This document shows, piece by piece, positions 1-35,499 of a DNA stretch of 64,000 nucleotides. Each line of letters starts with the position of its first letter. The first letter of the stretch is position 1. Made by a program: the position numbers and the translations under genes. Where the stretch lies: positions 466 to 64,465 of the forward strand of contig CAYMNK010000006.1 in assembly GCA_964391805.1 (NCBI GenBank), read 5' to 3'. Origin of the DNA: an uncultured Christensenellaceae bacterium (GTDB lineage: Bacteria; Bacillota; Clostridia; Christensenellales; CAG-1252). The notes under the pieces are model-generated. The model was not told the DNA's origin. It worked only from the letters and a program-made list of their open reading frames with translations, and did no database searches.

Positions 1-3000
1 TAATATGCTTCATATTCTATTCCAGCGTCAGAAACATCTGGAACAGTTTTTTCATCAACCCAATAGAATCCCTCATCAAGTTTATTCGTAATATCGCCAA
101 GCGTTATTCCATACTTATAGCTAACATCAAGTTCGATAGTATTATGCGTCTTCGTACCACAACTTGCCTTAGAAATTACCGCTGTTTTGATTGTATTAGT
201 GAAGGTGTAGTTCGACGCAAGGGTGTCATCCAACTTAGCACTTGCAATTAATGAATAGGTGCCTGCGTTTATGAAGGCTACTTCATTCTCTCCAATCTTA
301 TAAGTAACATCCATATCAATCATACCATCATTGATATTCTTATATTGAGCGGTTACCGAGTGAGCAGAACCGGTGTAGGTGTAGGTACCGATTGTCCATT
401 CGACAGATACTTCCTTTGCGGTTACAGTAAGAGTACGCGTCATTTCTCTATTATCACCATTAGAAGCAATAATGACATCATTGCCATTACTATCTTTCGC
501 TGAGAAGGTGTAGTTAGAGTTATCTGCGAAAGTATACCTAATTGTATAAGTACCAACTGATGTACCATTAACATAAACAATCTCAGTATCTCCGTTATAG
601 AGTTTCAATGTGATACCACTCAAAGTTTCACTATTGACTAACTGAACAGACTTAACTATAGATTCGATGTCAAATGCATCACCATAAGTTACACTTGCAT
701 TGTCAATGGTGATGGTTGCTTGAGCTTTACCAATTTCCGCTTCATTGGTTGTATTAGTGAAGGTGTAGTTATATGCAAGGGTGTCATCTAACTTAGCACT
801 TGCCGTTAATGAATAGGTGCCTGCGTTTATGAAGGCTACTTCATTCTCTCCAATCTTATAAGTAACATCCATATCAATCATACCATCATTGATATTCTTA
901 TATTGAGCGGTTACCGAGTGAGCAGAACCGGTGTAGGTGTAGGTACCGATTGTCCATTCGACAGATACTTCCTTAGCGGTTACAGTTATTTTACCCTTAA
1001 CAACATCAGCGTCAAGCTCATAATTCGGGTTAGAAATTGTGAAAGTACCGCTGATATCATAATCACCGATAGCACTTCCCTTCGAATAGGTTGTTGAACC
1101 GGCAACTGTTCCGACTGTATCTGAACCATAAACATTTGATAAGGTTGCATCGTTAAGATTAGGTACATCCGCACCATACGAAATGCTATGACTCGGCATA
1201 GTTACAATAACCTTTCTCTTGTTTACGGTAAGAGTACCGTTGTTTACGCTTACGGTATAATTAGAATTAGAATCACATGTTGCTTTAATGGTATATGTAC
1301 CGGCTTCTATTATGCCTTTTACATACGTAATAGCGTTTTCACCATTATAGAGTTGTAATTGAACATTACTTAACGATTCACCGTTTACTAATCCCGATAT
1401 AGTAGGAGAAACAGTATCAAGGGTAAATTCGTCACCATAAGTTACACTTGCATTGTCAATGGTGATGGTTGCTTGAGCTTTAGAAATTTCCGCTGTTTGG
1501 GTTGTATTAGTGAAGCTGTAGTTCGACGCAAGGGTGTCATTCGACTTATCACTTGCAGTTACAGTATATGCACCTGCATTCTGGAATGCGGTATTATCCT
1601 TATTAGAGTCGGATATACCAAGATATGATACAGACATATAGACAGGACTTCCATCGTAAGCGGTGTATTTAGCTGTTACCGAGTGAGCAGAACCGGTGTA
1701 GGTGTAGGTATCGATTGTCCATTCGACAGATACCTCCTTAGCAGTTACGGTAAGAGTACCGCGTTTCTTAGTTATTGTGTAGTTATCGGTTACATCATTA
1801 CCGGATTTATCCTTAACTGATACGGAAATGATAGATATGGTGTAATCTCCGACTTTGCCGTAAGTTGCATCGCCTTGAACATAACTACAACCATATTCGA
1901 CAGTGGCAGCATCTCCATTTACTAATCCTGTAGGCGTAAAGTCGAATGTAGGCTTAAGACCACCGAAGGAAATACTTTCATCTTTAGCTTTAATGGTTAA
2001 TAACGTTTTAGTTACGCTAAGAGTACCGTTAACATAAGTGATCTCATAGTTAGCGGTTACATCGGTTGAACCAGACTTAATTATTGCGTTATCGGGCACA
2101 ATATCATAGCTACCGACGGTATCACCTGCTATATAATCGCAAGATAGAGTTACTGTTTCTATCGTGTCTTCACTCACTAATCCGTCATACCCAAACGCAA
2201 ACTCGGGTTTAGCGGCCCCGAATGAGATATCCTTGTTATTTGCGGTAATAGTAAGCTCTTTCTTTGCGATAGTCAAAGTCTTAGTAGCGGTTGAATCAAG
2301 TTTATAGTTTGTCACACTACTGTTTAAAGTAGCAACTAAGGTGTAGGTGCCTGCATTTTTGAATTCGTTAACTTTAGCAGCATCGTTTACCTCGGAGCCA
2401 TAGTAGTAAACAATATCTAAGTCGCTATAATTGTTATTTATTAATTGATATTGAGCAGTAATCACTTTGGAACCATTGCTCTTAGATTGATCGGTTCCAT
2501 TGTAGGTAAAGGAACCGTTTATACCACTCCAAATAACAGATACAGACTTCGCCTTTACGGTTAATGTACCGCTATTATTATTTGAATCAACAAGTTTGTA
2601 GTTAGATTTAGCATTAAGTGTATAGGTAATTGTGTAATTACCAACTGAATCACCAGCTTTGTATGTGGTGGTAAAATTACCGATAGAGATCAATAATTCG
2701 CCATTATAGATATTAGTTGCATTACCATCTAATGTAGGTACATCTTCGCCATAGGTCGTTTCCTTATTATTAACCGTTACAGTAATTGCTCTTTGCTTAA
2801 CTGTTAGCGTTCTTGTTACTTCGGTTAATTCATTATTATCCGAATCAACAAGTTTGTAGTTAGAATTAGCGTTAAGAGTATAGGTAATCGTATATTCACT
2901 ACTTGCATCATCACCTTGCTTATAGGTCGAAGAGAATACGCCGACTGAAAGGAGTGTAGCATCCGATTCAAATAATTTGCCATTTGTGATAGATATATCA

Positions 3001-6000
3001 GCATCAGTCAAAGCAGAGTCACCATAACATAATTCGGGATCACTAATAGTAACAGTTATAGAAGCCGCCGCGATGGTTAATTTTTGGGTTGTATTCTCTA
3101 AGGTGTAGTTATTCTTAACGGTTGCACTTGCAGAGTCGCTCCATTTAGCGGTCAAGGTGTAGGTATCGGCATTCTTGAATACCTTGTTGGTTGATACGCT
3201 ACCTTGATATGAAATATCTAAGGTTGCATTCTCATCGGTCGATACGGTTGCAGTTATTCTTCTATTCTGTTCTTGATTCTGTTCTTGACCATTGTAAGTA
3301 TAACCATTTGCATTTATACCATTCCAAACGACGCCCACGCTCTTAGGTGAAATAACGACATTGTCAACAGACAAAGATGCTGTAAAGTTGTAGTTAGATG
3401 CAAGATTATCAGTTGCTTTTACGCTTGCAGTCAATTTGTATGTTCCTGCATTTTTGAATGTAACAATCGAATCATTTTGGTAAGCAGAAACAGTCAGCTC
3501 TATATCAACACCATCATAAGTTCTGTAATGAGCTTTAATACTACTAAACTCAAAGTCTCCATAGGTAAATGACTTAATCTTTTCGCCATCAAATAGACCT
3601 TCCCAAGTGATAGATTCAATCTCTTTTTGGGTTACGGTTACAGTTTTAACTTCGCTTGATGATTCTGTTTCGTCAACATACTTGTATTGGTAACTAATGA
3701 TGTAGTTACTGTTAGCCAATCCACCGGCAGTAATAGATACACCTGTACCCACTGTAGTAGACGAAGCATATGACTCATTTCCGCCATAGGTGTATTGAAC
3801 AGTTCCCAATGAATCGTTACCGAATGCGGTATAAGAATTGGTAACAGTAATAGTCGAACTACCATATACAACAGTTTTAGGTACGGTTATTGTTACCGTT
3901 ATAGGTGCAGGTGCAATGGCTACTTCGGTAGATACGCTTGAGGTTGCGGCGCTTTCGGTAGAAACTCCGCTGACGTAGAATATGTAGTTAGGATATGATG
4001 CGGTTGCTGTATATTTACCGGCATCCTTGATTCCATTAGAAGACTCACTCGATACAGCGTTTCTTCTCGATTTTGCGGTTGATTCGACTACCTTGACATA
4101 AGTAATATTTGCATTTTGCTGATTTTCGCTTACATCGGTAAACGTAGCTCCTACATTTTGATTGAGACCGTTATATTCCAAACCACTATTATTGCTCCAA
4201 GTTAATTCTCTTACAGCGGGATCAACAGTAAGGGTACCATTAGCGGTAGTATCTATTGTGTAGTTAAGAGTTACATCAGTATCACCACGTTTAACTGTTA
4301 CATTATTAGAAACAATTGATATCGTGTATTCTCCGACTTTGCCGTAAATTGCATCACCAACGACGAATTGGGTACCGTTAGACGTTACACAACCGTAGTC
4401 AGATACAGTTATAGAACTATCTATTGAAACAAGTCCGTCATGAGTAAAACCAAAGCTCGGTTCCTCACCAAACTTAGCGGATACGTTAGAAGGTTTAACT
4501 GTCAAATTCTTCGTATTGACAGTAAGGGTTGCAGTTAATTCGAAAATTTCGTCTCCATTAGCAGATGAAACTACTTTGTAATTCTTATTTGCGGTATAGG
4601 TTACCTTAATGTCGTAGTCACCTGCGAAGGTACCAACTGCATATTCGAAAGATTGTGCGTTATCGCCCTTAGTGTAGAGTGTGTGAGTAGGCGCTATATC
4701 GCTATCTAATACTAATCCGCTGATTCCGAATGATTTTTTAATCTTATCGTCTACTTCATTATAATCATCACCATAGGTTACCGATACATTACTAACATTT
4801 AAAACTACCTCTTTGGGGTTAATGGTTACAGTGGCGGTAGAATTGGTAAACGTATAGTTAGGATAAGTTGCGGTTACGGTATATACACCAACATCCTTAA
4901 TGGAAGATACGTCAATAGTTTCATTACTATTATTATAGCTGTACTTGCAAGCGAAGTTCTCTGCTGATAACGTGATTTGTCCGTTTATACCTGTGAAGCT
5001 TGCCGATATTGTCTTAGCACTTCCCTCATAGGTGTACGTGCTGTTACCGTTCCAAGTCAAAGTACGCTCGGCAGGGTTAACAATCAATTTACCTTTAATA
5101 ACGGTTACACTGTAGTTGGCGTTAGACGATACGAAATCTATTTCATATCCGTCAGCATTAGCATCGGATGATGCTGTATAAGCACAAGTAAACTTACCTA
5201 CAGCCTTGATAGAATCATGTAAAGCACCATTTGTAATACTATAGATGTTCTCAATATTCTCATAGGTAGGAACAGAATCACCATAAGTAATGGTGTGAGT
5301 ACCTATTGTGATAGTAATGCTTTCCACAGCGATAGTTATGGAATCATTGACAACTTCCTTATTATCATTAGCGCCTGTGAATGTGTAATTATTGAGTTCA
5401 TCGGCAGTCTTAGCCTTTGCAGTAACAGTGTAGTTGCCTGCGTTTTTGAATAAGGTATCACCACTATTAGAGGTAGATGTGCCAAGATATGATACTTCCA
5501 TATCAACTTTAGTTATACCATCGTAAGCGGTGTATTTAGGCATTACCGATTGAGGGTTACCATTATAGGTGAACGATGTAACGCCCCAGTCAACAGATGT
5601 AGTAAACGGATTTACTATAAGAGTACCGTTGTTTACGCTTACGGTATAATTAGAATCAGGAACATACGTTGCTTTGATGATATATTCACCTGCACCGGTT
5701 GTGCCTTGTTCATAAGTAATCTCAGTATCTCCGTTATAGAGTTTTAGTTGAACATTTCTTAACGACTCGCCGGTTACTAAATCTTTTACAGGACAAGTGA
5801 TATCATTTGTAATATCAAATGCACCACCATAAGGGATTCCTTTACTACCTACTTCGATAGAAACGGGTTTAGCTGTTATCGTTATAGAGAAATGATCATC
5901 GTTAAATCCAACATTCTTATGCTCGGATTTAGAAGATGCGGATATTTCGTACGTACCCACATTCTTGATTTCGGTAACACTTACTCCATCCTTCTTAATA

Positions 6001-9000
6001 GATATAATGGCATCATATACGCTACCTTCATAAGTGTAATTAGCGGTGATGGTTGAATATACAGCGCCATCGTAAACCCAAGTTAAGTTATCGGGTTTAT
6101 TTGTCCAAGTTAAATTAAGAGTGACATTTCCTTTTACTACATATGTACAACTATTAAAGGTGTAGTTGTCTGCAGTAATAGTAAAGTAGTAAGTGCCGGC
6201 TGTAGTGGTTGACTTATCGTAACCACTTGTAACTACCAAATTGATATTTTCCTGAGTATCACCATCACATAAGCCACTAACCGTATAGCCGTAATTAAAC
6301 TCGTTACCCATGACAACTTCGGCATTAGTAAATTCGATAGTTGCTTGAGCCTTATTTATTGTTACAGTTTGAGTTGAGTTAGTAAAGGTGTAGTTAGCGT
6401 ATTCACTTGCGGTTAACTCATAACTATCTGCATTCCTAAATACTTTGCTATCGCCAATAGAGATATTTGCGGTTAACAATTTATCAATAGTCGTAGAACC
6501 CTCCTCGTAAAGTGCATTGGGGAATGTTGCGGTTGGAGTTTGTACTTTTCCGTTATAAGTGTAATCAGTATTCCAGGTTAAAGCTACCGACTTAGCGGAT
6601 ACGGTAAGTTTACCGCTTGAATTAGATTCTACGGTATAGTTAGAATTACCATTAAAAGTAAATACTATGTCATATGAGCCGACATCACTGCCTTTGGTGT
6701 AATTACAAGTTGTAGCACCGATATTGGCGTTATCGTTTCCGTATAAGTCAGTGAGAACTGTTCCGTCTGTATCCTTAATAAGTGTTAAACCCTTAAGCTC
6801 CGCCTCTGTCAAAACAGGAGCACCATAGGTCTTTGTTGCGTTTGCTACGGTTACAGTGATTGCTCTCGTGTTTACGGTAAGAGTACCAACAACTTCGGTT
6901 ATTTCTTCTTTAGCAGCATTCACTAATTTATAGTTAACCTTATCACTATCATTGAGAGTGAACTTTATAGAATATGAACCTGCATTGCTACCTTGTTTAT
7001 ACTCACAAGTTGTTGAACCTACATTATCATTTCCGTATACGCCTGTAATTGTGGTTAAACTAATAAGTTCATCTGCGGTTAAGGATGGAGCGCCATAGGT
7101 CTTCGATGTGCTTCCTACGGTTACGGTGATTTCTTTCCTGTTTACGGTAAGCATACCCTTGGCGTAAGAGGTTACCTTGTAGTTAGAGTTGTTATCGTAG
7201 TCTATAAGGTTAATATCGTAACTACCTGCAGGGTCGCCTTTACTATACGTGCAACTAAATCCATTACCAAGTGTGTCGCTATCGAGCAAGTCGTCACATT
7301 TTACGGTGTATGTAGGAGCATCATCACCATATGTAATTGATATATCATCAACCTTTATGGTGATAGACTTAGGTTCGATTGTAACGCTATTGGTTAGTGT
7401 TACACCGCTAAAGTCGTAGTTGACGGTATCAAGTGCTGTTGCGGTAACGATATAGTTTCCTGCATCTTTAAACGAGGTGGACTTACCGCTAAATGCAATA
7501 TCCATAGTTACATCAGAGCCATTATATGCTTTATGACTTGCGGTGATAGCATTATTCTGTTCACTGCCATCGTATGTATAAGTAATTCCTTCTATTCCGC
7601 TCCAAGTAATATTGGTTACCTTGAATGCACTGACGGTAATAGCACCATCAATATAAGTGATCTTATAGTTACTCTTTACATCGATTTCGCCACGCTTAAT
7701 CGATACTGCACTTTCGTCGATCTTTATAGTATAATTTCCAACCTTACCGGTTTTTGGATTACCTGCTTCATAGCTACATTCATAATAGAAAACTGTTAAG
7801 CAATCTTTATCAAGGTCTATCAATCCGTTAGATGTAAATCCGTACGTTACAGATGTGCCGAAGGAAACTGAATAAAAATTAGCAGTAATAGTCAATGCCT
7901 TTTGTGTTACGTTAAGGGTACCGTTAGTTACGTCTACGGTGTAGTTATTATTAGTCTTATTGAAACCTATTGAATATCCACCGTCTTTGACACTGCTACC
8001 TTTCTCGTAATCGCAGGTAAATGTACCGATATCTCCGATATCATCGTATTTATTACCGCTAATAATACTATAAAGATTTGTAATATTAGCATAATTAAGT
8101 TCATCTGAACCGTATTCTACCGAAAGACTATCTGATATAGATATAGATATTTCCGCACGCTTGACAGTCAACTCATAGGTCATCGATGTCGGGAAGGTGT
8201 AATTGTGGGCATTACTGTCATCGGATTTGATGCTTGCAGTAAATGTATAACTACCGGCATCCTTGATCTTACTGTCGGGATAGGTTACATCTAAATCACC
8301 AAGTTCGGTTCCATTATTATCACAGTATTTAGCGGTTACAGTAAGTCCACTCTTATAATCCGTGCCGTTGTAGGTGTAGTTATCAGCAAAACCTGACCAA
8401 ACAATGCTTACAGTATTATGGTCAGCAGTTACCGTTAGGGTTGCTGTGACTACATTGGTATATTTTTCGTCAACAACATCTGAATTGGTAATCTCATAGT
8501 TAGAATTGATAAGGGTGTATGATATTGTATGACTTCCCGCAGCGGTAACGCCCTTTGTGTAACCACTAAACGAGCCTATACTGCTAATGGTATCACCATT
8601 ATATAGAGTACCAGTGTAATTAATATGAGCAGCATAATTGAATTCGTTACCGTATTCTACGGATAGGTTATCTTTAAACGATACAGCTATAGGTGCCAGT
8701 TTAATGGTTAATTCTTTAGTTTTGTCACCGTTTACATTATAGTTAATATTGGTGTTATCTATTGTCGTGAACGTGTATGTACCTGCATTAGTAAAATCTT
8801 GAGTAACCAGCAACGATACTTTATTATTATTAATGTCGATATAGTATGCCTTAACGGTATCTTTATGGTTTGTTCCGTCATAGGTATAGCCTGATTTTGT
8901 ATATTCCCAAACAATGGGTACCTTTCTTGCGGTTACTATTAATTTGTTATCTATGACATTAACCGAATAATTGGGGTTTGCATTGCTTACGGTTGCACAA

Positions 9001-22622: not shown

Positions 22623-22624
22623 TT

Positions 22625-23368
22625 CTATTCCTCTGTATCTTGCATAAATACCTTGACTAAACTTTCGTAAGGGTGAGCCTCTCTAAACTCTTCCATGGTG
22701 AAGGAGTCGGTAATATGTCCCTGTGAAACTCTATAAACTCTGTCGCAAATTCTGTCTACTACGTCTAAGTTGTGTGAACAGAACAGTATGCCGTTACCTT
22801 GTTGCTTGTACTCTATCATGTAGGCAAGCAATGCTTCGATAGTCACCGCATCGAGTCCGGTCAAAGGCTCGTCCAACAACCATAGTTTGGGACGGTGAAT
22901 AAGGGATGCCATTAGACATATTTTTTGACGCATACCGTGCGAGTAGGACGATATCATCGAGTAAATGCTGTCACCCAATTTAAAGCGAGAATCCATTTCG
23001 TTGATACGCTCTTGTCTAACGCTTACATCAACATCGTGTAAGTCTGCAATGAAGTTAATGTATTCGAAGCCGGTCATCTTGTCAAACATAGCTCTCGAAT
23101 CGGGAACATATCCCAAGTTCATTTTCGCTTCTACTGCATCAGTCTTGATGTTGTGTCCGCATATGGAGATTTCACCTTTGTCAAAAGGAAAATATCCCGT
23201 TAAACACTTGATGGTGGTGGATTTACCTGCGCCGTTTTTACCCATAATACCAACTATTTCGCCCGAAAAGCATTCTACATTGATGTCTTCGATAGCATAG
23301 TGATCGGCTTTGCCGTATCTTTTTGATAAGCCCTTAATTTCGACTATCAGCTCTCTTTCGTTGTTCAT
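22625..23368 (-). CDS. ABC transporter ATP-binding protein (ABC-2 / EcsA-like subclass)
   Basis: Walker A GKNGAGKST, signature-like YSHGMRQK, Walker B LWLLDEP. RBS AGGAGA. Confidence 0.9.
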   Translation of the reverse strand: MNNERELIVEIKGLSKRYGKADHYAIEDINVECFSGEIVGIMGKNGAGKSTTIKCLTGYFPFDKGEISICGHNIKTDAVEAKMNLGYVPDSRAMFDKMTGFEYINFIADLHDVDVSVRQERINEMDSRFKLGDSIYSMISSYSHGMRQKICLMASLIHRPKLWLLDEPLTGLDAVTIEALLAYMIEYKQQGNGILFCSHNLDVVDRICDRVYRVSQGHITDSFTMEEFREAHPYESLVKVFMQDTEE

Positions 23369-23375
23369 AATTCTC

Positions 23376-23957
23376 CTAATATTCTATTTGTATTTTTTTG
23401 ACAATCTCATAACCGTTATAACCGTATTCGATCGTTATTGCTTTTACATTTTTTTCCTCAACCGATATAACTACCGATACAACGCCCTGTATTGTCGACG
23501 GTTTAACGTCCAAAACAACGGACGGATCGGATAGTTTGAAGGAATATTTCTTGACACCTTCGGTCTCTTCAATCGCTATGTCTCCGTCTATTGACGATTT
23601 GGACAACTCCAATCCGCCATAGAATAAACCGAGTAATTCTTCTTTTGACATAGTGCCATCGGTTTTTTCTTCTACATAGTCGTTTTCACTCCACATATCG
23701 GGGTTGGGTTTATTGATAATACTTTCACATGTAACACTGTCTCCGCTAACTCGATATGAGACTTGCTCGGTGTATATTTCCTTACCCTCGGACGATGCTA
23801 TTATAGAATAACTGCCCGATACTACATTTGAAATCGATCCAAACGCTTCGTTTAGGTCCTTAACATGATCTACTTCGGCTGTTACTTTACATCCGACAAG
23901 CATTATCGCAAGAATCGAAACTAAGATAACCATTACTATTACAATTCTTCTTTTCAT
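23376..23957 (-). CDS. small lipoprotein, function unknown
   Basis: Track ORF 23376..23996. The better start is ATG 23957 (MKRRIVIVMVILVSILAIMLVGC), preceded by GGAGGA. It carries a lipobox, LVGC. Confidence 0.65.
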   Translation of the reverse strand: MKRRIVIVMVILVSILAIMLVGCKVTAEVDHVKDLNEAFGSISNVVSGSYSIIASSEGKEIYTEQVSYRVSGDSVTCESIINKPNPDMWSENDYVEEKTDGTMSKEELLGLFYGGLELSKSSIDGDIAIEETEGVKKYSFKLSDPSVVLDVKPSTIQGVVSVVISVEEKNVKAITIEYGYNGYEIVKKIQIEY

Positions 23958-23973
23958 TTTGTGTTCCTCCTCA

Positions 23974-26900: not shown

Positions 26901-29900
26901 CGGAAACAGAATCTCCGTCGACTACATTCTCTAAACTGTATTCGGGTATCTGTTCATTTCCGTCATAGACCATTTCGGAGGAATTCCATTTAACAGAAAC
27001 AGTTCTCGGTGTAATTCTATAAGTGAAAACGTATTCTGCTTCACCTACTACCACTCTAATAGTATAGTCTGCTACCAATTTAATAGAGAATACACTGGTT
27101 TCACCGATTAAGTATTCTTTACTAACACCGCTAACTTCATTGCCTGTATCCGTTTCAATTACCTTTACGTCTACATTTACCGACTGACCGTCGTAAACTT
27201 TTTCGTTAACGCTTTCTCCGTCAAATTTGATCTCTAAGGTGTAGTACTTATTATCCTCTACTACGTTTAGTTCTGCATTTTCGCAGGTTGCGTTATAGTT
27301 TGTATCTTTGTTGATAGCCACGATCGTGTATTTACCTACAACAATTTCTTTCTTCAAAGCAACCGTTCTATTGGAATCAACAGTAAAGGCTACTTCGTTT
27401 TCGCTGTCATATGCGACAAACTCAATATTACTTGTAGATATACTCGATGCGCTTTGGCTTACCGCGAAAATCAGCTTAGCTCCGTCGTATATGGACGATA
27501 GCATCACATCACGATTTATATTGACTATTAAAACGGTATCCTTGGGAAGTATCACGAATTCATGGTCAGCAGTAGCATCTAATACATAGTTAGAGTCGGT
27601 CAACACCGCCTTGATATCATACTTGCCTGCGTTGATATACGAAGGTACGCTGACTTGTACGTTATCACCTTCAACCGTTCCCGATAAGGTTACGGAAGGA
27701 GATTGACGCAATCCGTTATAATAATAATCGTTATCGCTCCAAACGGCACTTACCGTCTTGGGTGTAATCGAATAAGTATAGTTTTGTGTGTATCCGTCGG
27801 CAGATATAGCAATTGAGTAGGTTCCTACATTCTTAATAGAATAATCGGTTGATCCGTCTACCGTAACGGTATAAGATTCATTTTCACCGGTCTCGGCATT
27901 CTTTACATTGACGTCGAGTGCTACAACTATGCCGTCATATACTTTACTTAATGGTTCTAAACCTATATCGAAGGAATAATAATCCTTATTATCCACTACC
28001 GAATAGGTACATTTATTCAATTGAGTCAAAGCGTAGTTCTTGTTGGAATTGTTCGCTCTGATTTCATATTCGCCAACGGTAAGAGTGGAATCCGCTCTCA
28101 ATATGCCGTTTATTACATTTGCAACCTTGACGTTATCTTTATATATTTCGTAGGTGAGCGAAATGATATCGCTATCGCCAAAGTCGGAAAGGATAACTAT
28201 CTCGGAATTAGCCTTACTTAACATTACGTTACGAGATGCAAGACTTACCGAAATAGGTTTAGCGGTAATGGTATATGTACCGGTGGTCACGTCAAGACTA
28301 TAATAAGACGATTTATTTCCACTCGTCTTTTGAGCGTTAATAGCGTATTGTCCTACATTTTCGCCGTTTGCCTTGACAAGTTCTAAAACTTCGGATAATT
28401 GATCGCCCTCGACTAATCCTTCAACAACGGCGGTCAGAGTTTCTAATTGTGAACCATATACCGATTTTTTGTCATCAATATTCACCTTAAGGGCTTTTTG
28501 CTTGACACCGCTTATCGAGCTAACAACGCTATAATCGATATCGGCAAAGGAATCCGATGCCTCATATTTACCCACGATGTTACCGCCAAGCACAGAATAC
28601 TCATTCAACGACCTAACTTGGATATTCTTCTTAGTACCGTTTACAAAGGTTGCTTCTGCTGTCGCACTACTATCACCGTAAGTTACGTCGGTTATTGTAA
28701 AGCTGACAATTATTTCACGATAACCAAGCAAACTGCCAACTTCCTCGCTGATGGCGGAATTGACAAAGGTCAACTCTTCGCTTGCCAAACCCTTGATAAC
28801 CGATTGATATTCGTCAAATACATCCTTAGCTTCGCTTATTAATTTTTCACTCGTCGAATGAGCCAACGCCTCGACATTGGCAATATGCTTACTCAATGCT
28901 GTTTTACGGATGTAAACATCTGCGGAGTGGTCTATAATGTAATCTTCAGAAGTGAAAACTACACTTTGTACATACAAATCGCTTAACGCGCTCGGTAACA
29001 ATTTAACCGACGCGGTGTTTCCGTTATAGAATGTAGCGGTTGCGTTTACATCGAGGTCTTGTATAAGTCTACCGGACTTATCGTAAACTTGAATATAAGA
29101 CGAATCGGCATTCACCGATATGGATTTGGTAACATCGAGTGTAATTCTATCTAACGAATCCCATTCATTAACAATCTTAACCGATTTATCAAACAGCTTG
29201 GCTTGATATTCGATATTTCCGTTAACTACTGCCCAAACGCTGAACAAGCCGTCGGAATCGCTCTTTTTAGATACACCGTCAACGATAACTACTACATCCT
29301 GAACTTTATCACCGATGTAAAGTTCACGCTGAACCAATAACTCGCCGTTAACAAGTTTAGCAAAATAACCTTGCATATTTTGGTTAAGCTCGATAGTCCA
29401 ATCTTCAACTTCAAACTTCTCGGCAGAATCCATTGTAAAGGATTCTAATACAAAATTGGTACCAGACTTAATTGAATATGATTGATAGGATGTACCCTTT
29501 TCAAGAAGTTCGAAATCTCCGCTACCTAAGCCTTGCACTCTTGCAGTAATATGTAGTTTCGCGGTATTTATATCATCGCCCGAATAATAGCCACCCATTG
29601 TAATTACTTTTTTTAATTCTGCATTCACGCCTACATTTACGATAGCACCGTCACGGGTAGATTGAATAATTCCCGCAAAGGCACCGTCAATATTGACGAT
29701 CGAATTATTGATAAACATTCCGCTAACGGCAAATCCGTTATCACGGAGTTGATCTGCATATGGATAATACTTAGCTATAACCGGAGCTAACAACAAAGAA
29801 TCAAGAGCATATAGTCCACCATTTACTTGTAGCGTACCGCCTTCGGCAACAATCATTTCACTTCCCGGAAGAATCATATATTCTCTGCCCGCGGGAATTA

Positions 29901-32900
29901 CAAGCGTTGCTCCGTCGGTGATAACATAGTTGAAAGTATAAGGTAACCCCAATACCATTTCCATGGAACCGAATCCCTGCATGGAAAATTCACCCATCCA
30001 TATTTCACCATGAAAACTCAATGTAGTAACACCACAATCTTCAAGGTGAGCTTCCCCCATTTGAAGATTGACGCTTTTGGGACTATAACTAAAATCGATA
30101 TATGAGTTCTCGGTAATCCAATATAAAGCACCGTCTGCACCGTCAATTCTATTCTCGATAGAATTGACAACCACAACGTCTTGGGTATTGATAGCGCTCA
30201 TAGCAAACAATGCCGCGTGTCCTACAAGTTTCGCGCCGTAACGAAGAGTGTAGTTACATTGAACATTCATTAATCCGTAGTTGTAAAACGGGAAGCAGTT
30301 AGCCTCATAATAATGCAATGTAATGGTACCACCTTCATAGTTGTTGACGATAAACGGCATTCTCAATGTGGTATTATCTTGTAAATCGATATTACCCGAG
30401 CCGATAACCAATCCCATAACATCAAGATAAGCACCGTCATGTATCTCTATAGTTCCGTTATTTACTATTTGTGAATATGCACCCGAAGTATGTCCCTGTG
30501 CCGACTGATCTTGGGTAAACATTACCGCACCGAGCGTCAATTTACTTTCGATAACAACAGTAACGCCCTTATTAACGGTAAGAGTTAGGTATAAATATTG
30601 ACTTCTCGTTTTTTCCGTTGCCCAAGAAACACACTGAGATGTACCGCCTATTGCGTATCCGGTTTTATCCTTAGCGCTGAACGGAATAAGTATTTCAACC
30701 CCCTTAGGTACGGTAAGGTCTTCGCTAATTGTAGTATCGTTGATAAGGACTATCTGTCCCGATGTAACATTAGCAACGGCTTCGTTTAACGATGTATAGA
30801 AACCTTTATCCGATTTAGCTACATAATAATCGGGAAGTTGCATAACCGCTTTAACGGTGGTGTCGCCAATTAAAACAAAGGAATAGTCCACATCGGTAGA
30901 AACCAACTCATCGTTAATTATCCAACCGTAGAAGACTTTACCGGCATTCGGAGATGCTTTAAGGGTAATTTTAGTACCAACCGACAATTCCTCTCCGCTG
31001 TCGATAGTCGATCCGTCAACCGAAGCGGTAAACGAGCCAAACTCGTCAAAATCGGTGGAAGCTGTAAATGAAGCATTACCTACATAATAGGCAACGCCCG
31101 AAATGGCAAATAAATCCGATGTTTCGTCAGTATAACTGTCGAATGAACTTGCTTTAAAATAATAGATGCGTACGATCGCCGTACTACCTTCGGCTTCTAT
31201 ATTGCATGTCTTACGACGCCAGCCGTGACTGCCATGGTTAGCTTTTTTCAATGAATACTCATCATAAGCTTCGCCGATATAATATTTGGCTAACGTAGAT
31301 TCCTCTATCGAACTAAAATCGAGTTCTTTATCGACGGTAATCAAACAATAAGAATATTCGTCGATATCCATATAATAATCAAAGACAAATGAACCGGTTC
31401 CGCGTACTTCGAAAGAAATAACGGATACGCTCGACTTGACACCTCTATTACCCGGGATGTAAGCGATTTTTTCGGTCGATACGGGAGAAAAGTATCTAAA
31501 AGGTTTATCATTGTCGTTAGTGATAACGATATCGGTACTGCCTTCCGCTATTAAGTCCTTTTCGATAGTATAGGTGGTAACCTTATTAATGGTATACTCG
31601 AATTTGGTATCGGCATATGTTTCTTTTGAATAAACAAAGGTGAAGGTGTGGTCGTAATCTAAGGTACCGAAGGAATAAACATATTGACCTTGTGCATCTA
31701 CAAGCTTTTTAGCTTTCAAAACGCCGTCAACGTACAAATCACATTGCTCGTTGTCTACACCGATTGTCGGCGCTGCTAAGGTAAGCTCAACTGTAACGGT
31801 TTTATCGAATTCGTATACTCCGCCATTCTTTACCGACAGATTACCGGTAACACCGTTTTTCTTGATCATTAGATTTATATTTTCACTCGGTAAATTCAAC
31901 AATGCCAAGAACTCAATGTCGAGAGTTGCATTACCGTCGAAATATGCATCAATCCTATAAGAATCTACACCGTCTTCAAAGGACTTCTCATCTGACTTTT
32001 TCGCTTCGCCGTTAGAATTTAGAACCTTGAACTTATAACTGAAAACTTTAATGATTTCTGCATCATAGCCCGACTCCATGTAGATGGGTGTATTCAAATA
32101 CTTAAGCACTTGGTTCCCACCGTTTACGAGTTCAACTTTATTATCATAGGAGTCAAAATAGTACACACTACCCCAAATATCATTGTATTTCAAAGTCAAA
32201 GTATAATAATCCGATTCTTCCTTTGTCGAAGACAAATTACTTACACGCATTTCGGCAGTGCTTGAAGAGCCCGCTATAGGATCATAGTTAACGGTAATCA
32301 CATCGAAAGAAGCTTTCAACACCAATGCACCATCGGTATAGTCATTATTACTCACCGTACCCCCGACTCTGGTGCTCTTTACATTAAAAGAATTGGAATC
32401 GGTCTTAATCACACCGCAATTGCTACCATAGCTGTTGGTGGCATCAACGCAAATCGCGCTGAATTTAAGGTAATCCACGCCTTTGGTAACTAAACGCATA
32501 GTGCTTGCGGTCAATCTGTCACTCTCTTGAGATAGAAATACACCATCTTCGGTTTTTCTCCAACCGTTTTCCGCGGGAAGATAGTAAACTCCTTCGATCT
32601 CGGTTAAGGTCCAACCGACGCTTATGGTTATAAGCTGAGATTTATCAACGTCGCCGTCTTTAAGAGTAAGTCTATAAGTACCGACACCGGATATTCCCGA
32701 AAGAAGGATAGTTTTACCGTCCGAAGATAGTTCATAGCTTTCAACTTCACTAATAACCTTTTCGCCTTCGTCATCGAGTGTTACGTTGACCTTAGCAAAA
32801 GAAAAGTTATCGGCAGAAACTGCTGACGATAAAACCAATTTAAGATCGCTCGAATCGCCAAAAACGAAATATTCATCGTTTTTGGAATCGACTTCAGTTC

Positions 32901-33075
32901 CCGAAGAGAGAATATCGAAACTGATTACCGATTCGGCATAAGATATTTCGGTGTTCGTTGCGGAAAACATTGCAAAACAAGATAACGCAAGTATTGCGAT
33001 AAGAAGTATTGCTATCGATCCGATTTTTGAAAAAGACTTGTTAATCATGATTTTTTTATTTTCTCCTATGTTCAT
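23974..33075 (-). CDS. 3,033-aa cell-surface protein: signal/anchor, non-repetitive N-terminal half with beta-helix-like region, MBG/YDG-type repeat half, coiled segment, C-terminal hydrophobic tail
   Basis: ORF track. Hydrophobic N-terminus IGSIAILLIAILALSCFAMF. GWIINDELVSTDVDYSFVLIGDTTVKAV is an InlB-B-repeat-like motif. MBG-like modules, e.g. SVYGSQLETLTAVVEGLVEGDQLSEVLELVKANGENVGQYAI. YDG-like modules, e.g. VSAVWSDNDYYYNGLRQSPSV and SKVYDGIVVALDV. C-terminus ..MALISAISVVAYFGIKQTL. An alternative in-frame start exists at 33048. Confidence 0.85.
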   Translation of the reverse strand: MNIGENKKIMINKSFSKIGSIAILLIAILALSCFAMFSATNTEISYAESVISFDILSSGTEVDSKNDEYFVFGDSSDLKLVLSSAVSADNFSFAKVNVTLDDEGEKVISEVESYELSSDGKTILLSGISGVGTYRLTLKDGDVDKSQLITISVGWTLTEIEGVYYLPAENGWRKTEDGVFLSQESDRLTASTMRLVTKGVDYLKFSAICVDATNSYGSNCGVIKTDSNSFNVKSTRVGGTVSNNDYTDGALVLKASFDVITVNYDPIAGSSSTAEMRVSNLSSTKEESDYYTLTLKYNDIWGSVYYFDSYDNKVELVNGGNQVLKYLNTPIYMESGYDAEIIKVFSYKFKVLNSNGEAKKSDEKSFEDGVDSYRIDAYFDGNATLDIEFLALLNLPSENINLMIKKNGVTGNLSVKNGGVYEFDKTVTVELTLAAPTIGVDNEQCDLYVDGVLKAKKLVDAQGQYVYSFGTLDYDHTFTFVYSKETYADTKFEYTINKVTTYTIEKDLIAEGSTDIVITNDNDKPFRYFSPVSTEKIAYIPGNRGVKSSVSVISFEVRGTGSFVFDYYMDIDEYSYCLITVDKELDFSSIEESTLAKYYIGEAYDEYSLKKANHGSHGWRRKTCNIEAEGSTAIVRIYYFKASSFDSYTDETSDLFAISGVAYYVGNASFTASTDFDEFGSFTASVDGSTIDSGEELSVGTKITLKASPNAGKVFYGWIINDELVSTDVDYSFVLIGDTTVKAVMQLPDYYVAKSDKGFYTSLNEAVANVTSGQIVLINDTTISEDLTVPKGVEILIPFSAKDKTGYAIGGTSQCVSWATEKTRSQYLYLTLTVNKGVTVVIESKLTLGAVMFTQDQSAQGHTSGAYSQIVNNGTIEIHDGAYLDVMGLVIGSGNIDLQDNTTLRMPFIVNNYEGGTITLHYYEANCFPFYNYGLMNVQCNYTLRYGAKLVGHAALFAMSAINTQDVVVVNSIENRIDGADGALYWITENSYIDFSYSPKSVNLQMGEAHLEDCGVTTLSFHGEIWMGEFSMQGFGSMEMVLGLPYTFNYVITDGATLVIPAGREYMILPGSEMIVAEGGTLQVNGGLYALDSLLLAPVIAKYYPYADQLRDNGFAVSGMFINNSIVNIDGAFAGIIQSTRDGAIVNVGVNAELKKVITMGGYYSGDDINTAKLHITARVQGLGSGDFELLEKGTSYQSYSIKSGTNFVLESFTMDSAEKFEVEDWTIELNQNMQGYFAKLVNGELLVQRELYIGDKVQDVVVIVDGVSKKSDSDGLFSVWAVVNGNIEYQAKLFDKSVKIVNEWDSLDRITLDVTKSISVNADSSYIQVYDKSGRLIQDLDVNATATFYNGNTASVKLLPSALSDLYVQSVVFTSEDYIIDHSADVYIRKTALSKHIANVEALAHSTSEKLISEAKDVFDEYQSVIKGLASEELTFVNSAISEEVGSLLGYREIIVSFTITDVTYGDSSATAEATFVNGTKKNIQVRSLNEYSVLGGNIVGKYEASDSFADIDYSVVSSISGVKQKALKVNIDDKKSVYGSQLETLTAVVEGLVEGDQLSEVLELVKANGENVGQYAINAQKTSGNKSSYYSLDVTTGTYTITAKPISVSLASRNVMLSKANSEIVILSDFGDSDIISLTYEIYKDNVKVANVINGILRADSTLTVGEYEIRANNSNKNYALTQLNKCTYSVVDNKDYYSFDIGLEPLSKVYDGIVVALDVNVKNAETGENESYTVTVDGSTDYSIKNVGTYSIAISADGYTQNYTYSITPKTVSAVWSDNDYYYNGLRQSPSVTLSGTVEGDNVQVSVPSYINAGKYDIKAVLTDSNYVLDATADHEFVILPKDTVLIVNINRDVMLSSIYDGAKLIFAVSQSASSISTSNIEFVAYDSENEVAFTVDSNRTVALKKEIVVGKYTIVAINKDTNYNATCENAELNVVEDNKYYTLEIKFDGESVNEKVYDGQSVNVDVKVIETDTGNEVSGVSKEYLIGETSVFSIKLVADYTIRVVVGEAEYVFTYRITPRTVSVKWNSSEMVYDGNEQIPEYSLENVVDGDSVSVVLGEFDCIDAGKHTATVLTISGSDSANYTLASVGLSFEYEIKPAKAEVSFYVNDVLYGKVAETIKMEVSSELSKNEICFVILKDGIEVGSVKNGVVTLNSELEIGSYQMSAESLNSNYVAESETRTFNVISHEDYYEVDLGINNDSKTYDGKEVTLKVKVRVSATGSVVSHTLTVNGSADYSIKNAGDYSIMINVLGGQFEYSYTIEKKSVNLRWSASDFVYNGKNQMPTVEITNKVSGDDVSVVQGDYECIYAGSKTANVKELVGADKDNYVLNGNLTYQYNISKLTVNVTVDNVKSVYGDSDVALTAQVSESTPDTLDSIISLSRKEGKSVGEYAISVQCINDNYTVKYNSAKYVIESKPIKVLIDRKSSVYGEELSSLTATIDGNLVYDDKAENIYELVMDRGINVGEYAISGRALNSNYSVEFVNAVYTITPKKVEFTVGDKQMVYGNEVVKVDAELSEGYTLSYNDTIGDIIEVIREEVNNVGTYKITVVEKGNANYMVYDIHYTNPENSVYTIDPRPLTITLTNKSSDNKAEYKDIIDILNNDPYRISSGTVVGDDDLGIEILLMFTSDEGEIKMTESNFKDYYHTGEFKITLEYSNNNYDITVADAVFTVTKSIVNVVNMETEFIYNDGEEIKVFDWTKNITGNLKEADNNSFSIVITDSNGEDVEKIIDVGTYNVKVIIVYHHLFIFDDDVVTDYTVTVSKKDISDKLIAVNVPESGETEYDPFPNSVYVECELDNVDVECEIIFNNEVISGDEFDIGTYTINAKIVSNNYKGELSRTWKVVPKDITKNINILGVKTDSINIIGAFDIKVMCSNKVELKKELIFNGEVVENIEKSGEYTIKVTVLSDNYSGQKELTFDVIRNYSEVFENISAYLDGFENMSINEKLEALSAVRKELQKIDETDRAKLSEVASYAEVVETVENAFNSYHKELSNAVSTAKHGIPIADTMALISAISVVAYFGIKQTL
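25760..28000 (-). repeat. three about 246-252-aa super-repeats within the 3,033-aa gene
   Basis: In-frame translations: VVDNKDYYSFDIG (codon 1693, nt 27999), VVEDNKYYTLEIKF (about nt 27262) and VISHEDYYEVDLG (about nt 26511). Each is followed by the same module order: K(V/T)YDG module, then ..W..Y(N/D)G..Q module. Confidence 0.7.
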
Positions 33076-33241
33076 TCTTTTTCCGTCTCGCGCGCACGCA
33101 TTTAAAAAATTTAATATATTTAAAATATTTTATTTTTAACACAAAAATTCGCACAAAACAGCTTTGAAAATACTACGTGCAAAAAAAGCGATTTCATTCT
33201 ATAACCCATAGAAAAAGCATCGCTTATCAAAAATATGGAAT

Positions 33242-33655
33242 TTAAATATTGAGTCTTGAAAAACTTAAAAATTTATCGTTACGGGATTCTCTATAGACTT
33301 GCCCGTTATTAACATGATTGACGGGAGTGGATATCTCGCCGTATTTCGAAGCATACAATAAAAACTTGACCAGTCTCAAAACGAACATGGTACAAGAGGA
33401 TATTCCAATAAAAATAAAGGAGTAGGATAGTAGTAATTGAATGGTTACCGTTACCGACGAGGTACCGAAACAATATTGAAGGAGCATTCTCAATACGCTA
33501 ATTGTTTTTTCGGATAAATTCCTTAAGAAAAACTCCTTAACTACATCAAAGTAAGCGTTCCATATCAATAGAAGCGAAACAACAAGTAGGGACAGCGCGA
33601 TGCTCTTCCTTAAAAACTTGCCTATTCTATTAATGAAACTACCTTTCTTTTCCAT
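33242..33655 (-). CDS. small integral membrane protein (137 aa), function unknown
   Basis: ORF track. About three hydrophobic segments. RBS-like AAGGTTAAGGA upstream. No family recognised. Confidence 0.5.
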   Translation of the reverse strand: MEKKGSFINRIGKFLRKSIALSLLVVSLLLIWNAYFDVVKEFFLRNLSEKTISVLRMLLQYCFGTSSVTVTIQLLLSYSFIFIGISSCTMFVLRLVKFLLYASKYGEISTPVNHVNNGQVYRESRNDKFLSFSRLNI

Positions 33656-33803
33656 TTATATCCTTAACCTTATATACTTTTACGGCATAAAAGCATATTT
33701 ATGCCATAAGTTTATTGTATTATATCATATAATACACAATTCGGCAAGTGTTTTTTACAAAAATTAATATTTCGTACACTTTTTTAAGACTTATTTCGAT
33801 TAT

Positions 33804-35288
33804 TTATTCGTCATTTTCTTCCTTTTTGGACGGAACACCCTCTACAGACAACTTTTTCGCCTTGAGTTTTGCCAAAAGACGCCTAAACGGAAAGACATCG
33901 AGAGCCAAACCTTTATCCGTATCAGAAGCCGATTCTACCGTAAACGAAATCAAAATGGTCATTATGAAGAATGTCGGTCCGAAATAGTTGGTGTCTATCA
34001 TTCCGTATCCTTCCCAAATGAGGACAGATACTAATAATGCTAAACCTGTCGGAGTCTTAACTATTGGTGCAAAACTGCGCAAACGCCAATAATAGTAAAT
34101 CAAGAAAAAGATTATTCCGATTATACCCATATTTGCGACAACTTGGAAAAATGTGGAGTGATACCAATAGGGCGTATATCCGTTATTCGCGGCGCCTTCA
34201 ACTCTAACTCCAAGTTTATAATCCCAACCTGCTCCGCATATAGGCCAACGCTTAAACACTTCTAATGCTTCGGGATAAAGCGATTCTATTCTCGAACTGC
34301 TGTCAAACCCCTTGTCTAACAACGGTGAAATAACTTTTAAAATCTCGTTACCGTAAAAACCGATTAGGACCACAGCGCCGACAAATAACATCGATATCGT
34401 AAAACCGAATTGGAACTTGTTTTCCGTTTTTGATGCTACGTAAAATGCCATAAACGGGAATACTACTACCGCGAATAGCAATGCTCCGCGACAACTTAGT
34501 ATAAGCAGTAAAACATAGTAAAATACTATCAATAATATGTATAGCGGGACAATTTTATTCTTTTTGATGCAACGGATAAATGTCACAGGTATCGCTAATG
34601 CCAAAACCGGTGACACATTGTTTTTACCTGCCCAGCCAATGTTAAAGCTACCTTTTACCTCGAGACATTCCGCCCACGTACTGCAAGTTCTGGCATAGTA
34701 AGTGACTATTTGAGCTGAAACTAAAAGTCCTAACACAAAGAGAATAAAACTCATATAGTCTACAAGTTTTTTGCGTTCTTCTCCCGTGTTCGTTACAACA
34801 AAAAACGAGTATCCCAATCCCACGATAACAACCAAAAGGAATGCTACAAGAACAGCAACCCAGTTTTCATACGGACTGCCAAGTCCGCCAAAGGCAAACG
34901 GTATCGCTAATAACAAAACGGAAAAGTGAAATCCCTTGATCTTGGTTATACCCAAAACCGACCAATCACGCTTAAATCTCACTACGCTGAATATACATCC
35001 TGCCAAAAGAAGAACAACTATAGGAATCAAAAGATACACATAACTATGCAGATTATGACGATTGTCCGAAATGATCATAGTCATATACATCAAGAAGGGG
35101 ATGAGATGTTTGGTTTCTTTAGAGAAAAATAGAGGCAATACCGAAATCACCAACAAGACACATAGCATAATGGGCCATATACTATAAAACCATCCTATGA
35201 ACACAAGAAGAGCAATCAACACTACATAAAGTTCCGATTGAATAAATCTATTCAAATATTCAAATGCTTTTGTAACCTTTTCTTTCAT
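33804..35288 (-). CDS. O-antigen ligase / Wzy_C-family polytopic membrane protein
   Basis: Track ORF 33804..35363. I prefer ATG 35288 (MKEKVTKAF) because the longer ORF start lies inside the predicted promoter. More than 10 TM segments. Family-typical motifs: LSCRGALLF, a large loop ..RIESLYPEALEVFKRWPICGAGWD, and YHSTFFQVVANMGIIGIIFF. Confidence 0.7.
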   Translation of the reverse strand: MKEKVTKAFEYLNRFIQSELYVVLIALLVFIGWFYSIWPIMLCVLLVISVLPLFFSKETKHLIPFLMYMTMIISDNRHNLHSYVYLLIPIVVLLLAGCIFSVVRFKRDWSVLGITKIKGFHFSVLLLAIPFAFGGLGSPYENWVAVLVAFLLVVIVGLGYSFFVVTNTGEERKKLVDYMSFILFVLGLLVSAQIVTYYARTCSTWAECLEVKGSFNIGWAGKNNVSPVLALAIPVTFIRCIKKNKIVPLYILLIVFYYVLLLILSCRGALLFAVVVFPFMAFYVASKTENKFQFGFTISMLFVGAVVLIGFYGNEILKVISPLLDKGFDSSSRIESLYPEALEVFKRWPICGAGWDYKLGVRVEGAANNGYTPYWYHSTFFQVVANMGIIGIIFFLIYYYWRLRSFAPIVKTPTGLALLVSVLIWEGYGMIDTNYFGPTFFIMTILISFTVESASDTDKGLALDVFPFRRLLAKLKAKKLSVEGVPSKKEENDE

Positions 35289-35330
35289 TTTTCGTCCCCC
35301 GTTTTGTCGAAAAGTATTATTAACTAATAC

Positions 35331-35359
35331 ATTATATCCACATATGTCAAAATAAGCAA
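35331..35359 (-). promoter_or_regulatory. sigma-A-type promoter for the ligase-like gene (TTGCTT-17-TATAAT)
   Basis: Minus-strand reading: -35 TTGCTT (35359-35354), 17-nt spacer, -10 TATAAT (35336-35331), 42 nt upstream of ATG 35288. Confidence 0.45.
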
Positions 35360-35499
35360 ACATTTTTTAGCATTTTTCGACTTTTGTCACCTTTCTATTG
35401 CGTTTTTGCGACAAAATACGACAATTGTGTGAAAAAAGTGAAGAAAAAGGGAATGTTTTTATTGCATCTATGCTTATCCGAAAGATATTGAATTGTTTT

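Follow-up and report, generated by a model that had tools for sequence, protein, structure and literature searches.

The stretch of DNA considered here, called the window in the following, comprises 64 kb from an uncultured Christensenellaceae bacterium (assembly GCA_964391805.1, contig CAYMNK010000006.1, positions 466 to 64,465). Its first part, positions 1-35363, is occupied by eight consecutive genes, all on the minus strand. In the order of transcription, they encode a membrane protein of the Wzy_C (O-antigen ligase) family, a hydrophobic protein of 137 amino acids (aa), a giant surface protein, a small lipoprotein, the ATPase and the permease of an ATP-binding cassette (ABC) transporter, a protein with Big_2 domains and a beta-helix, here named g1070, and a second giant, which is a lipoprotein and continues beyond the window edge. 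The gaps between these genes measure, in the same order, 148, 166, 16, 7, 2, 10 and 83 nucleotides (nt). The three big proteins alone, that is the two giants and g1070, account for 9,980 codons or 29.9 kb. The genes were called from a list of open reading frames (ORFs) and by direct translation of the left end of the window. The remaining 35.8-64 kb are filled with housekeeping genes (IscR/NifS/NifU-like, IleRS, LeuRS, GlyRS-like, sugar hydrolases), and the locus is therefore chromosomal. The coordinates are compiled in Table 1, where TM stands for transmembrane.

Table 1. Positions of the genes and other features of the window that are dealt with in the text
Feature	Position	Strand	Remarks
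Wzy_C (O-antigen ligase family) membrane protein	33804-35363	-	519 aa; likely start at 35288, giving about 494 aa
Promoter-like site with extended -10	33747-33719		after the ligase gene, upstream of the 137-aa ORF; weak signal
137-aa hydrophobic orphan ORF	33242-33655	-	
Type-A giant surface protein	23974-33075	-	3,033 aa; MBG_2, YDG and Flg_new_2 domains; N-terminal signal/anchor; C-terminal amphipathic helix and TM anchor
Lipoprotein	23376-23957	-	ORF 23376-23996 (206 aa); likely true start MKRR at 23957, giving 193 aa; lipobox LVGC
ABC ATPase	22625-23368	-	247 aa; DrrA/ABCA/LptB-like (ABC-2 partner) class
Fused 12-TM (2 x 6) ABC-2-type permease	20940-22622	-	560 aa; 12 hydrophobic segments
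g1070, Big_2/beta-helix protein	17717-20929	-	1,070 aa; N-terminal TM helix, about five Ig-like domains, C-terminal beta-helix
C-terminal domain of g1070	17720-19342	-	residues about 530-1070
Type-B giant lipoprotein	1-17633, open at window edge	-	at least 5,877 aa; lipobox LSAC
Recent DNA duplications in the distal type-B gene	114-1759	-	
IscR-like regulator, NifS-like cysteine desulfurase, NifU-like scaffold	35853-37983	+	divergent from the ligase gene
IleRS and LeuRS genes	38342-43908	+	after the IscR/NifS/NifU-like genes
350-aa protein	46950-48002	-	
ATPase of amino-acid ABC importer	50540-51319		
Permease of amino-acid ABC importer	51322-52104		
Binding protein of amino-acid ABC importer	52109-53062		
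Lysine riboswitch	53044-53215	-	Rfam RF00168

A first-pass annotation of this DNA had suspected in the eight genes a self-contained module that exports giant adhesins, decorates them with glycans and displays them at the surface. Its description of the single parts holds. ORF list and translation agree with its eight consecutive minus-strand genes, and its estimate of about 30 kb, or about 10,000 codons, for just three proteins comes close to the actual count. The start at 35288 proposed for the ligase matches the length of the relatives (about 490-510 aa). Its domain labels (Wzy_C, ABC, Big_2, MBG/YDG) are those that Pfam assigns. The lipobox of the larger giant can be read in the translation, and the N-terminal anchor and C-terminal hydrophobic tail ascribed to the 3,033-aa protein correspond to TM segments at residues 21-39 and 3009-3027. 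Nor did a motif check of the C-termini and Pfam scans reveal an LPXTG, SLH or choline-binding anchor, the C-terminus of the larger giant lying beyond the window. Promoter and terminator scans of the locus gave no enrichment over shuffled sequences.

What belongs together at the locus can be judged from its relatives. An alignment of 25 permease homologues was scanned against one genome per GTDB species. Out of 126 confirmed matches, 80 loci were kept with up to 10 kb of flanking DNA on each side. All of them stem from metagenome-assembled genomes (MAGs) or uncultured gut genomes of human, rabbit, sheep, roe deer or chicken origin. They are labelled Clostridia, Christensenellaceae, Candidatus Borkfalkia, Candidatus Stercoripulliclostridium, Bacilli (RF39-like), "Mollicutes", Acholeplasmatales or Erysipelotrichaceae; some labels, such as Parasutterella, Akkermansia and Bacteroidaceae, are plainly binning errors. 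Permease identity is 91% in the nearest public relative, an uncultured Christensenellaceae MAG, and falls to about 30% across the 80 loci.

Over this range three genes stay together. The ABC ATPase adjoins the permease in every one of the 80 loci, and a g1070 homologue is the next gene in all 79 that have visible downstream DNA; the one remaining locus ends inside the permease. The order ATPase-permease-g1070 is kept in 76 loci and permuted in three of RF39 type. The coupling is also close at the nucleotide level: with ORFs of the relatives called mechanically and start sites correspondingly approximate, the median distance between the stop codon of the gene before it and the start codon of g1070 is -1 nt, and in 76 of 79 cases the two are no more than 30 nt apart. 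The homologues of g1070 span a narrow range of length, about 1,015-1,160 aa. ATPase, 12-TM permease and g1070 are an invariable three-gene core. When all remaining neighbouring ORFs in the 80 loci were clustered, no other family proved recurrent, and no glycosyltransferases were among them.

Two peculiarities of the triad deserve mention. In three loci labelled RF39 or "Mollicutes" (L016, L020 and L022), the permease is followed by a protein of about 247 aa resembling the N-terminus of g1070, the ATPase, a full-length g1070 and a type-A giant. Further, three MAGs contain two paralogous triads each, on separate contigs and each beside a different giant (L035/L069, L036/L042 and L048/L052), which suggests cognate pairs of triad and giant.

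ABC-2 ATPase/permease pairs without an assigned function are common in Firmicutes. One might therefore suspect an ordinary drug pump or bacteriocin-immunity pump that happens to lie beside unrelated adhesin genes, the more so as the Pfam matches of the permease are weak. This explanation is highly improbable and is contradicted by synteny: about 80 species share the gene order, even where permease identity is as low as 30%, and they combine it with overlapping stop and start codons and with giants on one or both sides.

The giants themselves accompany this core in most loci. Of the 44 loci that show at least 3 kb on either side, about 38 (a strict heuristic plus four loci added by eye) contain, on the same strand and right beside the triad, an ORF of 600 aa or more, usually 2,000-2,900 aa. 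This ORF immediately precedes the ATPase gene or immediately follows g1070; in six loci, as in the window, both positions are filled. The giants are of two families, type A, exemplified by the 3,033-aa protein, and type B, exemplified by the lipobox giant. The window contains one of each. Sequence-profile searches of PDB and Pfam gave no informative match for either of them. Pfam assigns scattered MBG_2, YDG and Flg_new_2 domains to the 3,033-aa protein. Orthologues of the type-A protein comprise 2,400-2,900 aa and align collinearly with residues 369-1760 and 2205-3004 of the query, together more than 2,000 residues, with E values down to 1e-245 even where permease identity is only about 40%. 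Such collinearity implies true orthology and not mere matching of repeats. The C-terminal amphipathic helix and the TM anchor are likewise conserved across the relatives. In the RF39/Bacilli loci the type-A gene lies downstream of g1070; its linkage to the triad thus outlives rearrangement.

The small lipoprotein accompanies this giant. In 17 loci, an ORF of about 190-204 aa with a lipobox separates the type-A giant from the ABC gene, and type-A giants are always trailed by such an ORF. These homologues are too diverged for pairwise detection and yet align collinearly; profile searches found no Pfam or PDB relative.

In the type-B giant of the window Pfam recognises MBG_2 in 23 stretches together with Flg_new, the latter type marking the N-terminal region, and a self-built profile counts about 40 diverged MBG-like units. 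Type-B giants share the lipobox, the N-terminal 330-500 aa or so and the MBG units. The complete ones also share a motif at the extreme C-terminus, G-x-T-Y-x-Y...W. Their genes immediately follow g1070 or immediately precede the ATPase gene. Their length varies from about 2,090 aa in the Stercoripulliclostridium loci over 3,671 aa in a relative of the present organism (L161) to at least 5,877 aa in the window. Tandem Repeats Finder (TRF) detected no DNA repeat array in the window giant. The sole region with recent DNA duplications is in its distal part (Table 1), where a 263-nt pair, 94% identical, is spaced by 558 nt and 94-nt copies are 93-95% identical. Serine and threonine make up 23% of the window giant and 17% of the 3,033-aa protein.

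The first-pass annotation had suggested asking whether the accessory genes keep company with the giants in related genomes. The outcome is divided. The association stands for the ATPase, for g1070 and for the giants, at the frequencies given above, and for the lipoprotein in the company of type A. It does not stand for the ligase and the 137-aa ORF, which are discussed below. The accessory genes beside the giants are not a chance neighbourhood, and the module of core plus giants is very probably real and functionally coupled.

The universal partner of the transporter, g1070, consists of three parts. It starts with a hydrophobic helix that is conserved in the family (consensus MK.KIIAL.LVIPLLL, with L11 and P16 nearly invariant). 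Conservation of this degree is not what one expects of a cleaved signal peptide and suggests that the helix is retained in the membrane and contacts the permease. A stalk follows, in which Pfam finds three to four Big_2 domains. A full-length AlphaFold2 (AF2) model from 11 sequences places the helix at residues 2-21. From there to residue 530 or so it predicts about five Ig-like sandwiches, with a predicted local distance difference test (pLDDT) of about 75-90. For the C-terminal domain the full-length model had to be discarded in favour of a domain-only run, since pLDDT fell below 50 in many segments.

This C-terminal domain of about 540 residues is the best conserved part of the protein. Typical motifs are YGNGY.INAD, SVKAQDN, NVELKGC.D, NNGRTVVR, REFILKIGTN, GTSYPA, DVRFYDWK and YGGGKNYS. 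None of 74 members has a Pfam match here, and sequence and profile searches of PDB gave no match either. An exhaustive HMMER search among 1.84 billion representative proteins retrieved 345 clusters, nearly all of them about 1,000-1,100 aa long with the domain at the C-terminus. In two rare proteins of 1,964 aa (P0268 and P0290), the domain sits at about 1,420-1,890 instead of the usual 530-1,050 or so. A profile search for further relatives of g1070 was flooded by unrelated Big_2 proteins and yielded no new true homologues.

The domain-only AF2 model, built from an alignment of 93 sequences, reached a pLDDT of 92.4 and a predicted template-modelling score of 0.94. Foldseek comparison of this model with PDB and viral models retrieved right-handed parallel beta-helix proteins exclusively, the matches being weak (best E value 5.8e-3, template-modelling scores 0.2-0.3). 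They comprise fucoidan lyase, DFA-IIIase, pectin methylesterases including YbhC, pectate lyases, GH110, GH28, AlgG, the adhesin PfbA and phage tailspikes; most are named carbohydrate-active enzymes or tailspikes. At the level of the predicted structure, the fold class of the domain is established as a right-handed beta-helix, with no close relative emerging from the comparison, and the label "beta-helix" that the protein had received from its letters is borne out to this extent.

The beta-helix also bears a row of invariant polar residues. In domain numbering, these are N98, Q151, D152, D175, E193, R210, R214, R248, E249, K253, N257, K392 and N461. A series of them (Q151/D152, D175, E193, R210/R214, R248/E249/K253) recurs at a spacing of about one coil. 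This is the usual layout of an active site or a binding groove in beta-helix proteins, and the polar row may form such a groove in g1070. A pectin methylesterase (CE8) reading of the Q-D-N motif was considered and is not claimed, given the weak fold matches and the lack of any other recognisable CE8 motif.

The ATPase of the transporter matches Pfam ABC_tran (1.6e-27). The best NCBIfam matches, drrA (1.3e-50) and GldA, all stay below the family cutoffs, and the best PDB matches are the nucleotide-binding domains of ABCA3, ABCA1, ABCA4 and ABCA7 (1e-58 to 1e-48 for the ABCA proteins) and LptB. The permease matches weakly, with 23.1 bits for ABC2_membrane_5 against a cutoff of 25 and 17 bits for ABC_tran_2 against 25.7; its homologues carry the precomputed assignments PF16949/PF09847. 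A profile search with the permease found no sequence relative in PDB, the searched set of which presumably holds the Wzm and TarG structures. Judged by these matches, the transporter appears to be of the ABC-2 (type V) class with a separate ATPase and not of a protein-secreting type.

This has consequences for the supposition that the adhesins possess their own ABC exporter, which the data do not bear out. All secreted components bear a Sec-type signal, a lipobox or a TM anchor; in particular, all three large proteins and the lipoprotein have N-terminal Sec or lipoprotein signals. With such signals on the giants, the ABC system is probably not their secretor, and they would leave the cell via Sec.

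If not the giants, the transporter could move a glycan. The triad would then be an envelope glycopolymer system: the ABC-2 transporter exports a lipid-linked wall polysaccharide or a polymer resembling teichoic acid, the beta-helix protein modifies it as a lyase, epimerase or esterase, and the giants are neighbours that bind or need the polymer, not clients of the triad. ABC-2/type V transporters typically move lipid-linked glycans or lipids, and the ATPase matches domains of the DrrA/ABCA/LptB type. Most fold matches of the beta-helix are carbohydrate-active, the AlgG epimerase and pectin methylesterases included; the invariant polar row and the occasional presence of a Wzy_C protein point in the same direction. 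However, genes for glycosyltransferases, flippases or sugar activation are not conserved nearby in the 80 loci, and the fused 12-TM permease lacks a detectable sequence relative in PDB. The module also occurs in contigs labelled Acholeplasmatales or "Mollicutes", lineages that are generally regarded as wall-less. Finally, the linkage to the giants is tight and survives rearrangement. A glycopolymer system thus appears quite unlikely.

The ligase at the upstream end is of particular importance for the idea that all eight genes form one pathway, with export of the adhesins or their glycan by the ABC transporter, glycan decoration by the Wzy_C protein and display of the adhesins. The protein itself is not in doubt. 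It matches Pfam Wzy_C with 5.3e-10 and 39.7 bits (gathering score 31.7) over residues 278-421, has about nine hydrophobic segments, and its R292-x3-L296 and H402-x10-G413 are invariant in the alignment of homologues. R-x3-L and H-x10-G are the motifs defined in the WaaL literature. By these features it is a genuine Wzy_C protein. The combination of an ABC-2 exporter with a Wzy_C-family transferase would also follow the logic of ABC-dependent S-layer O-glycosylation, and the giants are rich in serine and threonine.

The distribution of the ligase tells a mixed story. A homologue adjoins the triad in about 10 of the 80 permease-anchored loci, in at least three arrangements: divergent upstream of the ATPase gene, directly after g1070 or, as seen in a reciprocal scan, after a type-B giant. 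In the latter, metagenome contigs were searched with the ligase alignment and 80 relatives were inspected with 10-kb flanks; only 7 of them have a triad within 10 kb. When the ligases were grouped into subfamilies at 40% identity, two proved to be mostly module-adjacent (7/9 and 6/6) and the largest not at all (0/44). The subfamily of the window's ligase scores 1/9, and this one is the window itself; none of its eight closest relatives is near the module. The closest ones (44-46% identity) are encoded among unrelated genes, for GH31, PLD nuclease and HAD hydrolase proteins. Ligases were thus recruited to the module repeatedly and beyond chance, yet they are not a core component, and the link of the ligase to the module in this genome is uncertain.

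Other observations also speak against a single eight-gene pathway. Pfam and NCBIfam found no glycosyltransferase or flippase among the eight genes, and neither these nor sugar-nucleotide genes are recurrent in the 80 loci, although such a pathway could be encoded elsewhere in the genome; the glycan decoration postulated before thus lacks a recurrent partner. The 137-aa ORF, which had been counted as a membrane component of the module, has no Pfam or NCBIfam match and no relative in any of the 160 loci of the permease and ligase scans. It may not be a real gene, or not a member of the module. The promoter-like site after the ligase gene (Table 1) and a stem followed by U7 downstream of the 137-aa ORF, the fold of which is not significant (z -0.87), give weak hints at separate transcription units. 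All in all, one pathway comprising all eight genes is unlikely.

Known systems resemble the module in parts. In its list of parts it matches NosDFY-NosL, the assembly machinery of nitrous oxide reductase, where an ABC ATPase and an ABC-2 permease are likewise encoded alongside an extracytoplasmic right-handed beta-helix partner and a small lipoprotein. NosDFY offers an example of an ABC-2 complex that works on a protein outside the membrane instead of pumping a solute. Its companion NosL is an 18-kDa lipoprotein (PMC8457098). The differences are, however, evident. The beta-helix domain of the module has no NosD family match in Pfam among 74 members, and NosD is absent from its top 50 fold matches. 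Its permease is fused into a single 12-TM chain, its beta-helix partner stands on a stalk of five Ig-like domains with a TM anchor, and the presumed clients are giant surface proteins. No nos genes, nosZ or copper context were found in the window.

Dedicated islands for very large Gram-positive surface adhesins are also known from the accessory Sec system with SecA2/SecY2 (background in PMC12863079). In contrast to these islands and their serine-rich repeat proteins (SRRP), the module has no SecA2, SecY2 or Asp proteins, glycosyltransferases or LPXTG motif and instead uses an ABC-2 transporter and a beta-helix protein. Type I secretion of giant RTX adhesins (LapA/LapBCE, SiiE) shares with the module an ABC transporter encoded beside adhesins of several thousand residues. 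Type I substrates, though, have C-terminal signals and no N-terminal signal peptide, and their fused ABC exporter depends on a membrane-fusion protein and an outer-membrane channel. The giants of the module bear Sec or lipobox signals, its ATPase (247 aa, ABC-2 class) is encoded apart from the permease, and no gene for a HlyD-type fusion protein was found. To the Wzy_C systems (WaaL O-antigen ligases and the protein O-oligosaccharyltransferases PglL and S-layer WsaB) the window is related by its ligase, a multi-TM Pfam Wzy_C protein with both R-x3-L and H-x10-G. It differs from them by the lack of linked glycan-synthesis genes and by a subfamily linkage to the module that is not conserved. The signals that define sortase-dependent (LPXTG), SLH and choline-binding proteins are not seen in the large proteins as far as these lie within the window.

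The giants also recall periscope proteins, which are rods of variable length built from repeated domains, with MBG_2 among the listed repeat families (10.1101/2020.12.24.424174). Periscope proteins are defined by tandem domains that are nearly identical in DNA and vary in copy number from strain to strain. The type-B giant resembles them in its roughly 40 MBG-like units and in its length variation between species. Its repeats are diverged at the DNA level, where TRF reports no array and a single 263-nt pair is 94% identical. A further likeness, by analogy only, is to the Gli123/Gli349/Gli521 machinery of Mycoplasma mobile: two giant anchored surface proteins, a surface protein of about 1,100 aa for their localisation, and an ATPase drive. 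Gli123 has 1,128 aa (10.1101/2022.09.07.507039), the sizes of the parts are similar, and the module is also present in Mollicutes-related MAGs. The motor, however, is F1-ATPase-like in the Gli machinery and an ABC transporter in the module.

West-Roberts et al. described giant proteins of gut Clostridia with Listeria-Bacteroides repeats and no such accessory module (10.1101/2023.11.21.568195). Our literature searches yielded only general work on giant genes and periscope proteins and no description of the module, in line with the impression of the first-pass annotation that no such pathway had been described. The module is apparently undescribed. What would be new is the linkage of an ABC-2 complex with an external beta-helix partner to giant surface proteins; complexes of this kind as such are known. 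Two of its families, the beta-helix head and the lipoprotein of about 195 aa, have no sequence match in Pfam or PDB, the former now with a confident model.

On balance, we consider it somewhat more likely than not that the locus is a copy of an envelope module conserved in uncultured gut Firmicutes, in which an ABC-2/beta-helix core is linked to giant proteins and acts on them outside the cell. The core is the ATPase, the fused 12-TM permease and the translationally coupled protein of about 1,050 aa with membrane helix, Ig stalk and beta-helix head. Its genes are linked to those of one or two giant, membrane-tethered surface proteins, which would leave the cell through Sec and not through the ABC system. 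The ABC complex would act at the outer face of the membrane via its beta-helix partner, presumably in order to mature, attach or maintain giant fibrils. The Wzy_C ligase would be an optional accessory, recruited in some lineages, and may be functionally unlinked in this genome.

How the core would do so can be imagined in two ways, and any specific mechanism must be regarded as tentative. In the first, the ATPase cycle would be passed through the permease to the beta-helix partner, which would then act on the giants outside the membrane, as in NosDFY-NosL or when external enzymes are controlled by systems of the FtsEX type. In the second, the transporter would extrude a lipid-linked glycan or lipid for processing by the beta-helix protein, which would probably be a carbohydrate-active enzyme, and where a Wzy_C ligase is present it could transfer the extruded substrate. 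Coupling to the giants of the first type is favoured over a general role in wall polymers because no glycan-synthesis genes are linked, because the module is also found in MAGs labelled Acholeplasmatales or "Mollicutes", and because paralogous triads pair with different giants.

A more daring version of mechanical coupling may be mentioned. The parts are all membrane-tethered: the permease, the TM-anchored g1070, a giant anchored at both ends, the lipoprotein and a lipid-anchored giant rod. By analogy, they could compose an ATP-powered surface machine in which the ABC-2 motor exerts force on giant fibrils via the beta-helix protein and thereby assembles, tensions, retracts or moves them, i.e., a device for adhesion or gliding. 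It would be comparable in function, and unrelated in sequence, to the Gli machinery of Mycoplasma mobile or to the NosDFY/FtsEX mechanotransmitters. We consider such a machine improbable, a speculation by analogy.

Some points weigh against a core that acts on the giants. About 6 of the 44 loci hold a triad without an adjacent giant; there, the giants may be encoded elsewhere, or the function of the triad may not need them. The weak Foldseek matches establish neither an enzyme class of the modelled beta-helix nor a relationship to NosD. The physical contact between permease and g1070 is suggested by gene coupling and the conserved TM helix only. The low count of ligases beside the triad also has a blind spot: the 10-kb flanks end inside upstream type-A giants, and a ligase beyond them, the arrangement of the window, is not visible there. 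Last not least, the evidence is purely genomic and all relatives are MAGs.

Beyond the locus, a few features of the window may be noted. The lysine riboswitch is full length (106.5 bits) and precedes a three-gene amino-acid ABC importer. The 350-aa protein starts with a region rich in glycine, serine and histidine (GGGHSGGGGSGSFHSGGSHGGSSGG), has a hydrophobic segment around residue 260 and ends in a very acidic tail. In the region of the IscR/NifS/NifU-like, IleRS and LeuRS genes, no T-box leader was detected at the Rfam gathering score.

The genes for giant proteins with MBG or Ig repeats are among the largest in gut Firmicutes, and in small genomes they occupy several percent of the DNA. 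The idea of a glycosylation pathway at this locus, attractive as it is, is poorly supported and is corrected here. In its place stands a concrete, testable unit: three small and tractable proteins that are linked to giants in most of about 80 species. If it is true that the ABC-2/beta-helix unit acts on the giants, the idea known from NosDFY and FtsEX would extend to adhesins and to Gram-positive and wall-less bacteria, and the triad would be a marker for finding such adhesins in metagenomes.

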